The notes below the pieces were generated by a model, which worked only from the letters and a program-made list of their open reading frames with translations, was not told the origin of the DNA and searched no databases. This document shows, one piece after another, positions 263 to 56,487 of a DNA stretch of 64,000 bases. A program made the translations under genes and the position numbers. Location: positions 1 through 64,000 of the forward strand of contig CAXHJY010001213.1 of the NCBI GenBank assembly GCA_964016885.1. The letters run 5' to 3'. Every line of letters begins with the position of its first letter. Positions within the stretch are counted from its first letter, which is position 1. This DNA is from Eledone cirrhosa (lineage: Eukaryota).

Positions 263-3200
263 TGTAGATAAATCTACCAAGAGTTTACGGTAGTGTCCAA
301 TCCGTATGAAGAACTCAATGTATTCCGGATATCATGGAAAGAAGAGATGTAATGAAAAATCACTTTCGGTGAAAGATAAACGGTATACAGAGTCAAGATA
401 AAATATTAAACAAATAATGAATAAACAATTCCTTATATTAAACAAAAAAAGTTCATTATTTAACGATCGTTTCTAGGATATATATGTGTTAGAATTGGTA
501 TGCATATTCAACAGATCTATGTACAAAATTATACAAAATTATACAAATTATGAAGATTAAATATACATACCAACACATATATACGCCGTCTTCAGAAATA
601 ATGAAGTATATTTATTGATAATAACAACAATTCAAAATTTCAGGTCCGTTTGGGAACAAAATTGACCAATGAAAACACAAAGGGTTAAATGCAGTTCGGT
701 GTGTGTATATACATGTAAAACCCTTACACATATTTTACAAAAATGTATGTATAATTTGTATACGCATACTAAAAGGATGGATGCAAATACAAAATTTCAA
801 GGTTAATGTCTCTGTAAGTTTATAATGCACAGATAAGATGCGTATTGACACTTATGAAATTAAGTATATAAATATATTTTTTCATACTCACACATATCCG
901 TACAAGCACACATACACGCGCGTATATGCATAAATATACACATAACCACGAACATACAAACACACACACACCCCCACTCACATTTATATATGTGGATATA
1001 AAATCATAAGCACATGGATATTAATTCACTCACATAAAACACTGGCACACACATTTTTAGATCAAGATACAGAAATTAGGTGGGAGGGGGGGGGAGAGGT
1101 CAGTATTCAACGGTCTGAGCAGACTGCCTAATATAGATGTATCTATAAACTAAGAAAATAAAAAATAATAAATAAACATTAAAGAGGAAAGAATAGAAAG
1201 AAAACAGAAAAAAGAAAAAAGAAAAAAGAAATATATCAAGAAAATAAATATATATATATACATATATACACATACATATATATATATATATATATATACA
1301 CACACATATATATATATAATATACATATATATACACATAGACACACACACACACATACATAAATATACACACATATACAAACACATACATACATATACAC
1401 ACATCCACACTAAGAACATACATACACACATATATATAAACATATACATATACACACATACATATACACATATACATACAAATACACATATACATATATA
1501 TATATATATATATATATATATATATATATACATATATATGTATATACACGTACATATACACACACATATACATATAATCACACATACTATATAGACACAG
1601 ATATATATAACCACACACATACATGCACATATACAACACTTACATACTAATATACATACAGATATACACATACATAGCTATATATACACACAAATATATA
1701 CAGACTTACATATATACATACAGACAAATACTTACGCATCTATATATCGGTATATACATACAAACACCACTACACTATCACACAACTTAGAAATACAAAG
1801 AGAAAGGTATATACCTATACACACATACATATACAAATAGAAAAACATATAGATATATATATATATATATATACACACACATATACATATACATATATAT
1901 ATATAACATATATATATATATATATACATATACACATACATATACACATACACACACATACACATATACACACATACATACATGTACACACACATAGAAA
2001 TATTTACGCATACACACATACACACATACATATAAAGTCATATACACACATACACCTACACGAACATACACATACACATATATAAAGATATATATACACA
2101 CACACACACACACGCACAACATATACACACATACACATATATATAAAAAATAAATAATAAAGATATATACATATATATATATACATACATATATATATAT
2201 ATATATATATATATATATACACATACACATAAATATACATACACATACATACACACATACATAGACATACTTGTACATACATACACGTACATCGATATAC
2301 ATACATATATATATACACACACATAGACATATACATACATACACACACAACTTACATACATACATATATATACATGTATATTCATACATAGAATTAGATA
2401 TATAATCATATATACATATGCACTTACTTATACTCATATATACAAATACATACGCATCCATATATGCGTATATACATAAAAACACCACTACAACCTCACC
2501 TAACTCAGACATACAAATAAAAATAATAATAAAAAGGCATATGTATATACATATATACACGCATTAATAGAGATATATATATACATACATATATATATAT
2601 ATATATATATATATATATATATATATATATATACATATATATACACACATACATTCATACATATATATATATAGATACCCACACACTCATACCACCATAA
2701 ATACACATACAAACACCCACATATACATATATATACACACGTATATATATATATATATATATACACACACATAAAAAACAGACATGCACAAATATATATA
2801 TTTTTTTACACTTATATATACACATATTATATACACATACACAACCTCACATATACACACATACACATAAGTTATATTATAATAATAAAAAATAATATAT
2901 ATATATATATATATATATATATATATACATACATCTATATATATATATATATATATACATATAAACATATACATACATATATACACACATACGAATATAG
3001 ACATATATTCACACATAGACACCTATATATATATATATATATATATATACACACACATACATATACACAGACACATATACACACTCACATATATATGTGT
3101 GTGTGCACACACACATATATACACACATACACTTATATACACATAAACACATATATGTGCATACATGCACACACACACACATATATCACATAGATACGAA

Positions 3201-5318
3201 GATAGACATATAAATAGAGAGACATACATATATATACAACACACATACACACACATACATACACACACATATACATATACATATATATATATATACATAT
3301 ATATATTCCTATATATACATATATACATACATATACATATATATATATATACATACACATATACATACACACATTCACATACACATACATATATACATGC
3401 ATATATACACATATATACATACATACACACACTCATATATACACACACAATCTTACATTCATATTTGCATGCGCATATATGTATTTTTATATTTAGATAT
3501 AAATACCCAAACCTATATAGACACCTACCTACATATATATTCATACATACACGCTTACAAATACAGATGATAATAGTATGGGGGAAAGGGGGGGTTTGGA
3601 GAAGGGGATCATAGTAAATATATGTTTCAAGAAACATAGAATATTTTCCGTATCTTTATCCAATGTATGTTTTTACATAGTTTCAGTGTTAGGAAATACA
3701 ACAAACAAGAACTAAGGCAAAATCTATGCATCTCAAAATAAACAAGTATACCATTAATTATATGTTAACTAAACCAAAGATAGTTAACATATTGATTTCT
3801 AAGGTGTAAATTAGTTAGGTTTATAATATTTGAAGCAGAATTTTGAAGTTAAATAGTAGTAGAGTATTAATTATAGTATAGCTAAATTAAAGTTAATAAC
3901 GTTATGGTATCAATATTAGGAAATGAATTTAGTAATAGGGAAAAAACAAATAAAATAAAGTATTACATCGGTAGTAGAATATAAATTATAGGTTAACTAA
4001 ATTAAAAATTATATATTTATTTCTATAGTATATGTTAATTAGGTATATAATACATAAAGCAGATATTGTATTTTATCAATAGCATAATATAATTATATGC
4101 AAATAGAAATCAAAACTAATACATATACATATACATATACATACACATACATATATATATACATATATATACACATATATATATATATACATATATACAC
4201 ATATACATACACACACACATACACGTACACATATACATATACATATCTTTTTCAAAAAAATTGCATAGAATATATTAACTAGGTATATATCCAAAACACA
4301 TCCCATTCTATGATTACATGACATTCTGCAATTCGTCTGTATAAGGATACTAATTTTAAGCAAATTAAAATTAAATTTTTATGTTGATTAAAATTAAAAC
4401 CAAATTATAAATATATTTCTAAAATGTATATTAATTAGGTCTATAATACTAAAAATTATTTCTCTGTCATTGGATACACGATATTATTTTGTTATATTTT
4501 ATCTGTAAAAGAATTATAATAAAAGGTTTAAATAAATTAAAATTAATCTATAAATTAAATTACTAAGTATATATTAGTAATATTTAAAGGTTTTTCACAA
4601 TTTATGATTACATAATATTTTATATTCTCATCTGTAATAAAATTTTAATTAAATTAAATTTATAGGTTAACTAACATTTAAATTAAATTAATTTCTAAAA
4701 TAATGTTATTAATTAGGTTTATAATATTTAAATGTTTTTTTTAGTTTATGATTACACGATATAATTAATTCCTGTCGTTTATTTAATAAGATATCCTTAG
4801 ATTTCATTATTTCAAATAGTTCTTGGGAACATAATCTACATTCATTTCTATTATTTTGATAAGGGGTGGCTCTTTTGAGCACACTCCAGGTCAAATCATA
4901 TTCTATATTCTTATTTTTATAACTATTGATTTTTTCTGCTAGAGATGTTGTATTAGCCAGTGCGGCATTTTTAAAAAACTATGCTTGTGGGTATTAAACC
5001 TTGTCTTCAAATTGTTAGAGGTAGCTCCTATATATGAGCAAATAGAATCTTTAGTTTTAACATTACATTTATAGACTATGTTGTTAACAAGACAATTCCC
5101 TTTTAATGGGCAGTTTGCTTTGTTTCTACAGTTACATCCTTTCGTTAATTCTGTATTTGAGGAGATATTATGGTTAATTTGATGTACTGGTGGTATACTT
5201 ATGGTTTTCTTACATTTATATGCATTATATGCACTTATATTTTGTTTTATGTTATTTGTTGTAGAGTATGAGAATTTAACTGTAGACCTATTTAAGATTT
5301 GATGGTATTTGTGGTTTG
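263..5318 (-). mobile_element. 5'-truncated inverted copy of the Penelope-like (Naiad-type) element: GIY-YIG C-terminus plus entire 3' UTR/pLTR, ending in (TA)n
   Basis: 398-5318 is the reverse complement of 7330-13299, apart from small differences and the RTE insertion in the right arm. ORF 4709-4894 matches the C-terminus of the 5475-7937 protein. A T-run expansion near 4973 shifts the frame. Confidence 0.93.
452..605 (-). ncRNA. Type I hammerhead ribozyme motif (family A, PLE pLTR)
   Basis: Reverse complement of the motif at 13092-13245. Confidence 0.75.
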
Positions 5319-5474
5319 TATTCTTGGTAGATTTATCTACATAATTTTGCTCCTACTTTCACGGAAATATTCGTATTTTTGTACTGTATGTGTGTATTAA
5401 TTTTATATTTATGTATATACATATATATATGTATGATTTTGTAAACCCATATACATTTAGTTGAGCTCTTTCAA

Positions 5475-55180: not shown

Positions 55181-55845
55181 TATATATATATATATATATA
55201 TATATATATATATATATATATATATATATATATATATATATAAGATCAAAAGATGGTTAAAAGAGTTCCATGTATTTTATTATGCGCATTTCAAAAACAA
55301 ATATCATCATGCAATAATATTTGTGTTTTCATCAGATAAAATAGGAAGACATGATATGAAGGTTAAAAAACACTTGTGAATAGTGCAGTTTTAAATCAAC
55401 ATATCAGTTTTAAATCAACATATTTGCATTGCTTTATTGTACTACAATAAAACTCACCTCCTACATATATATATATATATATATATATATATATACAAGT
55501 TAATATAAATTAATATATGATAAACACATAAGTGTTTGTATTGCAAAAGACGAAGTTAGCTAGAATGAAATAAACTAATTAAAATAAATATAGTTTGTCC
55601 GTCTCGATATAAATCAATAAAAACAAGCTCATATTGGCAAAAGTCGTGATTCCTGGACAAATTTAAATTTCAAAATCCAAACCTGCTCCGTAGATGAATT
55701 TGAACTTCAAAACCTAAATATGTTTCGTAACGGTGGTATAAAAAGTGAAATATTCAAATCTTCTGTGCTTATCAACAGGAATCCAGAAAAATTAGTACAT
55801 TTCACCTCCAAAAATTTTGCAGGACTATATATATATATAAAACAA

Positions 55846-56487
55846 TCGCTAAAACAATCTCTATACCTCTCATTTATATTTATACTCGGATTCTTTTCCT
55901 GGAGTGCTTAAACTATCTGTGACTAATCCCGGTTTTTTTCATAAAAACTGTGATAATTATTGCTATTTTTGCTGAACTCCTTTTGTGGAGTTTTTTTCAG
56001 AATGTATTTGACTGCTATTTCTTGTAAATAAACATTCACTTACATCCAGACGTCACTAGCCCCGTTTTTTCCCCATGTGCTTTTTCATAACTACACATGA
56101 TGGCGAACTAGCCAGTTTTAGAATTCCCTTTTTCGGATTATAATACTGTGAGAGCCCTGGTTTTCTGTTGAGCTCTGCTGATGAATGAAATCCAATCGTG
56201 ACCATCTCCACTTTAAGACTATACAGAGCATTTGTTGTTATTCCAAATTGAAGGATAAGTGTTTTAAACTTTATTTTATCATGAGTTAAAGGTCTATTGA
56301 TTTTTCCCTGGATTGCACTAAATTCTGTGGATGAATTTGTATCCTGATTCTCTTTTGAGATGAGTTTGAATTATTTTTCCTAAATCTTACGTTAACTACT
56401 TTTCCCATCTTGACGTTATAGTCGCATATATGTTATAGAATGCTGTTAGCTTCTCGCTAAAACAATCTCTATACCTCTCATTTATAT
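55846..56487 (+). mobile_element. Diverged second family-F monomer (608-bp period, 34-bp terminal redundancy); HHR has an internal deletion
   Basis: TCGCTAAAACAATCTCTATACCTCTCATTTATAT at 55846 and 56454. Homologous to rc 54523-55180. GCTCTG-CTGATGA at 56172 and CAGAGC at 56224, with the GAAA/stem III 5' strand deleted. Confidence 0.75.

Follow-up and report, generated by a model that had tools for sequence, protein, structure and literature searches.

What are the hammerhead ribozymes that crowd a stretch of the Eledone cirrhosa genome, and which enzymes wrote them there? The stretch analysed here, which we call the window, spans positions 1 to 64,000 of a 75-kb contig (CAXHJY010001213.1) in a genome of 3.0 Gb. 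A preliminary description had seen at least six ribozyme families, nearly all of them lodged in (TA)n next to what it took for a Naiad-type Penelope-like element (PLE), and had proposed that the local enzyme mobilises these as non-autonomous RNAs, making the locus a sink. We arrive at another account, to which we give a probability of roughly 70%: judged from the sequences, the window would be a TA-rich patch that received independent insertions of several PLEs (four Hydra families with intact relatives and one Neptune-like family) and of three non-coding hammerhead repeats, and a bulged hairpin just past the ends of the Hydra elements and of two of the repeats likely loads the Hydra reverse transcriptase (RT) and sets its two start sites. 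What we attribute to published work throughout refers to excerpts of the papers named. Families carry letters, and the coordinates of their copies are collected in Table 1.

The descriptor used to find type I hammerheads combines the core, stems I to III and an NUH site. It returned 26 complete folds in the window (three of family A, 15 of B, two of C, three of D, one each of E and F, and one at 30734), all with a CUGANGA/GAAA core, three stems and an NUH site. None was found in 100 local dinucleotide shuffles or in the reversed sequence, and two in 50 global shuffles, so that the complete folds described earlier stand. Four other motifs had been called partial; those at 19883, 42932 and 47781 are indeed 5'-truncated copies of three abundant families, whereas the one noted at 30733 is the complete fold at 30734, with an A.A pair at 10.1-11.1. 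A second F copy (stem deleted) and J fragments at 37871 and 38678 had been overlooked. Hammerheads B, C and E have U.U at 10.1-11.1, a tolerated variant (PMC3088659); the C.A in hammerhead A and the U4A core of J are non-standard features, and both of these are predicted ribozymes only. An Rfam search of the window gave no hammerhead at gathering score, and among the 150 of its 254 matches listed there were only microsatellite-driven miRNA matches. The families had been called unrelated; they are not wholly so, because A, D, E and a further family, L, have a stem II/III design in common.

We found that several of these families code for proteins. In tandem copies elsewhere in the genome, an open reading frame (ORF) sits between the hammerheads in A, C, D, I and J. 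The unit of element A (6.45-7 kb) holds the 813-aa ORF of the window at 94-99.8% identity, the D unit carries a second Hydra ORF, the J and I (about 3.5 kb) units carry further ones, and the 4.2-kb C unit carries a Neptune-like ORF. By sequence, A, C and D (as 3' ends) and the motifs at 19883 (I) and 47781 (J) are therefore ends of autonomous PLEs, four Hydra and one Neptune-like, and of the six families described as non-autonomous only B, E and F remain so. The local Hydra families are 33-52% identical to each other and 22-24% identical to C. The G hammerhead follows a Hydra-like ORF fragment, and in H there are weak Neptune-like remnants in two of 12 loci and nothing more.

Is the 813-aa ORF that of a Naiad? 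Naiads have an N-terminal endonuclease and are without canonical hammerheads, while Hydra elements have canonical hammerheads and target (TA)n (PMC8557442). In the ORF of element A, DD lies at 348 and YIG at 707, rather than a GIY-YIG domain preceding the RT with CxC between them; the residues at 115 read DKT, not DKA, and the element ends in a complete hammerhead. The protein further has RWR at 37, CxCX5C at 673, CxxC at 771 and CxH at 799, and it lacks GxKF/Y, with RWK-like and DKT motifs as in Hydra. The combination of a C-terminal GIY-YIG, a CxCX5C linker, and CxxC and CxH around E and N, with no CCHH, is found in A and also in D, I and J (the D linker is intact in locus L211 and has an insertion in L208). 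RLRWR and DKT are present in I and J, and all four families insert into (TA)n and carry a hammerhead, the cores of I and J being variants. The Hydra tendency to be generally <3 kb is absent, with units of 6,450 (A), 3,633 (D), ~3,535 (I) and 3,259 nt (J). Because of the C-terminal endonuclease and the Hydra motifs, we assign the ORF by sequence to the Hydra clade, not to Naiad. Pfam gave no match for the Hydra proteins; for the family C protein RVT_1 and GIY-YIG scored above cut-off. The latter has GLKF (GxKF), DKG, an RT, the linker CNDNRCGTC (CX2-5CxxC) and a GIY-YIG domain with an internal CIKCPNC (CxxC), so that C is, by its motifs, Neptune-like; it may also belong to the Nematis clade. 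Adjacency to the element as the cause of the local ribozymes is not confirmed either: hammerhead A is the end of the element itself.

Two observations concern the copies of element A. Its unit contains 15 (TA)6+ tracts (window 7938-13090; locus L195) and therefore carries its own target sequence along. The sense arm in the window begins at unit position 179 and finishes at 64; because positions 65-178 are thus absent from the sense arm of this intact copy (leader at 5322-5495), the copy could serve as a source of protein, while a full template with both hairpins is unlikely to come from it.

The idea of a parasite of a parasite fits only B, E and F, because a PLE protein search of these three gave no match at E<=0.1. 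Their longest ATG ORFs are 30, 90 and 54 aa, respectively, and blastn against the coding units gave only matches of 22-36 nt (E 0.006-0.02). Like retrozymes, they consist of tandem non-coding units each with a type I hammerhead, although some monomers have dead cores. Retrozyme units measure about 170-400 nt (PMC7229834); B fits this range at 310 nt, while F (629 nt) and E (1,275-1,322 nt) exceed it. From the identity to the window unit of 96 of 104 B monomers, drawn from 10 arrays, family B is judged very young. F and E arrays show an ABAB two-monomer period (L217, L218, L219 and L214), with one of the two cores mutated in L218 and L219, that is, in two of three F arrays. We had considered that a dead ribozyme defines the dimer period, an idea weakened by L217, where both ribozymes are intact.

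The ends of the insertions follow a common geometry. Every family except F has two fixed end sites downstream of the cut, and the 3' junctions adjoin (TA)n. Inverted arm pairs combined one short and one long end in 29 of the 31 pairs scored (two more were left unscored, and one of the two misses is probably a mis-paired neighbour). The same held for 10/10 two-armed B arrays, one further array being single-armed, and F ended at one site in 18/18 copies, including both arms of the sole two-armed F locus. In an anole Poseidon PLE studied in vitro, the tail is bounded by two internal RT start sites, and sequence 3' of the starts is required (PMC11167929); by analogy, the segment between short and long ends is the PLE tail. 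The claims that PLE-type type I hammerheads insert into (TA)n and that some families are non-coding with PLE insertion geometry (B, E and F) are thus borne out. The longest B arm runs to 14.4 near-identical units; in none of 21 B arms and 20 J copies does the 5' end coincide with the cut. Short-end B arms were within 0.12 of a whole number of units in 6/11 cases and long-end arms in 0/10 (window 24481-26347; L181-L190).

We next asked what marks these ends. Just 3' of them lies a hairpin in which RCUC pairs with GAGY. Its 3' strand has a bulge of 2 nt, its inner helix is of free sequence, and NCU follows it. Copies ended -3 to 12 nt before this hairpin in 213 of 216 microsatellite-terminated copies of A (31/31), D (51/51), J (34/34), L (9/9), I (39/41), E (31/32) and F (18/18), against a background chance of 0.0007-0.004 per 16-nt window; the same test gave 0/46 in C and 0/21 in B. 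These counts exclude the motif-fetched loci L311-L364, 46 read-through copies and 19 copies that are not microsatellite-terminated. The halves of the hairpin are separated by spacers of 12-114 nt and the bulge is one-sided. With the partner strand chosen by context alone, the outer and first inner pairs were Watson-Crick in 13/13 hairpins, with compensatory swaps (A-U/G-C in one pair, and the three inner pair types U-A/C-G/G-C in another); pairs were counted by script, as a MAFFT alignment misplaced the hairpins. The long-end hairpin pattern matched the genome 1,317 times and the control twice, and 23 of the first 30 loci lie 42-76 nt before a Hydra ORF start; the other seven are three E, three J-type without an ORF match and one E-like. 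For family I, where the hairpin was predicted blind, GCUC stood 6 nt after the long end in 97 of the 100 matches listed (some places twice), and the full hairpin was present. In published Hydra consensuses the hairpin, read by eye, is clear in three of six, from coral and sea cucumber: Hydra-2_Amil, Hydra-1_Ajap (twice) and Hydra-2_Ajap. The literal GTTGAGC had no match in the consensus file, the hairpins there having other bulge flanks.

From these data the hairpin is likely an RT start signal, and its presence at the ends of E and F leads us to assign them to Hydra enzymes. The wider proposition is about an even bet: that a twin hairpin, one per RT start site, would serve the whole clade as a telomerase-style template boundary, that the unrelated E and F circles would keep it to hijack Hydra enzymes, and that B would use another clade's signal. 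Since B is without the Hydra hairpin, a single local enzyme would not account for all families. A search of all retrieved loci found the post-end hairpin of B nowhere outside B. Further families that have the long-end hairpin but no downstream ORF match (L341, L349, L351, L311 and L342) are candidates for extra Hydra-dependent elements.

How might the hairpin work? A protein dimer would bind two hairpins, and its GIY-YIG domain would cut both strands of a (TA)n tract. Each target 3' end would then pair with 2-6 AU-rich bases 5' of a hairpin and prime cDNA, and the result would be a pair of divergent arms whose starts are 35-140 nt from each other. The hairpins would stay uncopied until the enzyme finishes a lap, and therefore only more-than-unit copies would regain them; PLE competence has likewise been tied to more-than-unit copies (PMC4209133). 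The hairpin would let E and F exploit Hydra enzymes, and B would follow the same geometry without it, served by the enzyme of another PLE clade.

Because the template runs through the ribozyme site, it would be a re-ligated circle or an uncut tandem transcript; the absence of 5' ends at the cut makes a cut linear monomer unlikely. We lean slightly towards the circle, which is suggested by arms of up to 14.4 units, by the whole-number short arms and by the ABAB periods. Uncut tandem transcripts from master arrays, with ribozyme cleavage dispensable or late, come somewhat short of even odds and are in keeping with the anole PLE, whose ribozyme mutants insert normally and for which no reads end at the cut (PMC11167929). 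Tandem masters exist for all coding families, and of the two Hydra families with the highest counts, one has a U4A core. Such transcripts fit less well with B arms of that length in near-identical units, with more than half of the short-end arms (6/11) close to whole units, and with the dimer periods of F and E, one core being dead in 2/3 F arrays; moreover, animal retrozymes form circles (PMC7229834).

Alternatively, the hairpin could act in DNA, as an endonuclease recognition site or an internal promoter, the ends then arising from a cut DNA intermediate or a transcription start. The position of the long-end copy, 42-76 nt before the ORF start, is a place for a promoter, the 3' side GAGY-RCTY is near-palindromic, and the Drosophila Penelope endonuclease needs the tail for DNA cutting (as cited in PMC11167929). 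We nevertheless consider this unlikely, since halves paired across 12-114 nt spacers, compensatory changes and a one-sided bulge fit a single strand, each of the two ends has its own copy of the motif, and the two ends are RT start sites in vitro (PMC11167929). Still less probable, and by a wide distance, is that B, E and F are satellites amplified in DNA by unequal crossover with ribozymes as passengers. The tandem layout would agree with it, and crossover, a route discussed in the preprint 10.64898/2026.07.22.740005, can yield higher-order dimers, but the arrays are dispersed and two-armed with fixed short and long ends in (TA)n, the B monomers are nearly all identical across arrays, and the hairpin sits at E and F ends.

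Several points weigh against our account. The anole result, in which uncut RNA was the main substrate and ribozyme mutants still inserted (PMC11167929), speaks against a required circle, and L217 has its dimer period with both ribozymes intact. The hairpin is degenerate in Hydra-1_Crog and Hydra-1_Obim and unseen in the incomplete Hydra-1_Amil. Its recognition began with A, D, J and E, which leaves I, F, L and the published consensuses as the independent tests, and related families are non-independent draws. The probability of the outer helix in leader context ranged from 0.00 to 1.00, being <0.1 in 3/13. In F another, weak hairpin lies at unit position 359, where 0/18 copies end. The partner enzyme of B was not found in the retrieved loci, and the clade placement of the families is motif-based.

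We then compared the window with the rest of the genome. Exact pattern matches, which are lower bounds and for which a reversed-pattern control gave 0 in every family, numbered 3,733 for A, 4,033 for B (43-mer), 5,047 for C, 3,419 for D, 660 for E, 378 for F, 20,740 for J, 22,278 for I (30-mer) and 3,602 for H (25-mer), so that every family is a genome-wide repeat. The J pattern left the variable base free, and all of the 100 matches listed read CAGAAGA (window 47781; L241-L255 and L271); by sequence, this abundant Hydra ribozyme has a fixed U4A core. In a background sample of 38 evenly spaced 10-kb pieces (380 kb) the descriptor found 21 folds, against 0.2 in shuffles, which extrapolates to ~165,000 (102,000-253,000) per genome. 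The association of ribozyme carriers with (TA)n held in this unbiased sample: a (TA)6+ tract lay <=200 nt 3' of the cut in 20/21 folds and 5' of it in 2/21 (chance 0.149). Additional hammerhead families, absent from the window, occur in background loci L226, L229, L237, L236, L307 and L309.

Is the locus a sink? With arms and arrays collapsed by hand, the window holds 9 insertion events against 3.0 expected (Poisson P=0.004), a figure to be read knowing that the window was selected for its hammerhead feature and lies on a TA-rich contig (TA content 6.0%, against 3.7% in the background). The window is thus about 3-fold enriched, and it is neither unique nor a special sink. The background itself is clumped, three of the 38 pieces holding three folds each, and the descriptor found none in the remaining 11.3 kb of the contig. 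A local Naiad enzyme that mobilises six non-autonomous RNAs into a sink is thus hardly credible, for despite this enrichment and the 15 (TA)6+ tracts of element A that could seed new targets, the ORF is not Naiad, A, C and D are coding, the families are genome-wide, the folds are clumped elsewhere too and absent from the rest of the contig, and tandem ORF-bearing copies contradict it.

How do these elements compare with known systems? The Hydra families resemble the published Hydra clade of PLEs with C-terminal endonucleases (Craig et al. 2021, PMC8557442; it includes Hydra-1_Obim) in domain order, in the RW, DKT, CxCX5C, CxxC and CxH motifs, in (TA)n targets and in a hammerhead within the terminal repeat. 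They differ in the long, microsatellite-rich 3' region of element A (a 6.45-7 kb unit, against generally <3 kb), in tails of 68-137 nt against 30-40, and in non-canonical cores at high copy. The main text of that paper has 0 matches for stem-loop, hairpin or palindrom, and the twin hairpin goes unmentioned there. The enzyme of the anole Poseidon PLE (Frangieh et al. 2024, PMC11167929) cuts and extends both strands in vitro, as would be the case here; its starts lie in an AC-rich stem-loop inside the ORF, whereas the proposed starts here lie in the leader, 5-12 nt ahead of the conserved bulged helix in each case. The minimal hammerheads described from PLEs (Cervera and de la Pena 2014, PMC4209133) share with ours a palindromic stem III, folding as dimers, the U3-A8 variant, opposite-strand pairs 100-700 bp apart and, in family H, a bulged base after A9; stems II of up to 115 nt set ours apart. 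The U3-A8 and U.U variants are already known (PMC4209133; PMC3088659), and a U4C core is named in PMC3088659; the U4A core of J was not found in the excerpts of these two papers.

B, E and F resemble metazoan retrozymes without long terminal repeats (Cervera and de la Pena 2020, PMC7229834; Li et al. 2026, 10.64898/2026.07.22.740005) in their non-coding tandem units, type I hammerheads and low GC, and B also in its typical size and palindromic stem III. They differ in their two-armed inverted insertions with PLE short and long ends; the E unit (~1.3 kb) exceeds the range of 51-972 bp given in the preprint, and E and F have a cis hairpin in common with one PLE clade, with no wider sequence similarity. 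Mobilisation of retrozymes by PLEs has already been proposed in both works, and in the excerpts cited the proposals rest on co-occurrence and terminal similarity. The ingredients are thus of known kinds; of interest are the proposed start signal, which would connect two of the non-coding ribozyme repeats with Hydra enzymes, and the abundant non-canonical cores. Literature searches, whose coverage excluded subscription journals and Repbase, returned no paper on this hairpin or on cephalopod retrozymes. The questions addressed here are how a PLE RT selects its RNA and the two sites where it starts, and by which enzyme animal retrozymes are mobilised; a 4-bp helix with a 2-nt bulge at both starts, in coding and non-coding families alike, makes both testable in the existing in vitro assay. 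If the signal is as we propose, retrozymes could be assigned to enzymes from sequence, and any hairpin-bearing RNA circle could be written into (TA)n. By extrapolation the genome also holds folds on the order of 100,000-250,000, abundant natural core variants among them, and Rfam misses the folds of the window.

Table 1. PLE copies, retrozymes and hammerheads in the window (nt, nucleotides)
Position	Strand	Feature	Note
261..5318	-	Element A (Hydra), inverted arm truncated at its 5' end; long end into (TA)n	end at unit position 201
309..393	-	Element A, bulged hairpin (ACUC/GAGU) at the short end	
452..605	-	Hammerhead A, predicted cut after 462 (GUU), 115-nt stem II	descriptor
5322..13299	+	Element A, sense arm, with leader, ORF, 3' region rich in microsatellites and containing nested LINE pieces, hammerhead and short end	
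5349..5470	+	Element A, hairpin (GCUC/GAGC, insert of 110 nt) at the long end	
5496..7937	+	Intact 813-aa ORF assigned to the Hydra clade, RT then GIY-YIG endonuclease; other copies in the genome 96-99.8% identical	
13092..13245	+	Hammerhead A, predicted cut after 13235	descriptor
19843..19970		Family I: truncated end, with two arms, from another Hydra element; full motif with U3-A8 core	
19969..20498		Family C: truncated end, with two arms, from a Neptune-like PLE (unit of 4.2 kb); hammerheads 20150-20188 (-), 20277-20315 (+)	
20513..24075	-	Older 5'-truncated element A copy with hammerhead 20712-20864	
24481..29242		Family B: non-coding 310-nt retrozyme, divergent arms of 6.0 units minus and 9.35 units plus, 15 hammerheads	
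29556..30887	+	Family G: 3' part of a further Hydra-like ORF, and hammerhead 30734-30850; ends in (TA)n	
42932..43052	+	Family H: minimal hammerhead of PLE type, truncated at its 5' end	
43570..43927		Family D: truncated end, with two arms, from a second Hydra element (unit of 3.63 kb); hammerheads 43601-43671 (-), 43729-43799 (+); hairpin 43844-43872	
47716..47942		Family J: two-armed truncated end of Hydra element, 3.26-kb unit, CAGAAGA (U4A) core; hairpin 47860-47908	
54178..54472	+	Family E: non-coding retrozyme of ~1.3 kb, truncated copy with long end; hammerhead 54268-54341; hairpin of Hydra type at 54400-54439	
54528..55152	-	Family F: single non-coding unit of 629 nt; stem III of hammerhead 54780-54861 is a true hairpin	
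55243..55463		Second family D insertion: hammerhead 55273-55343 (-) and tail fragment	
55848..56483	+	Second family F unit, hammerhead broken by deletion	

Among the hammerheads, a C.C mismatch at stem II position four is common to A, E and the background families in L229 and L307; D has C.U at the same position, and the C.C mismatch is absent in F and J. The window also contains other repeats. A long RTE-like LINE ORF with endonuclease, RT and C2H2 fingers lies at 13794-17411 (-), and its 3' piece recurs at 10172-10526 within element A. The segment at 10601-11050 (-), which adjoins (TAA)n and has a restriction-like endonuclease motif, we take to be a C-terminal LINE fragment. GC-rich LINE fragments with a zinc-knuckle and an endonuclease-like C-terminus, for which Pfam gave no match, are found at 59586-60635 (+) and 36066-36939 (-). 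Finally, an abundant SINE-like repeat of ~200 nt occurs at 32027-33705, 36948-37111, 40384-40587, 47397-47653 and 57860-59093.

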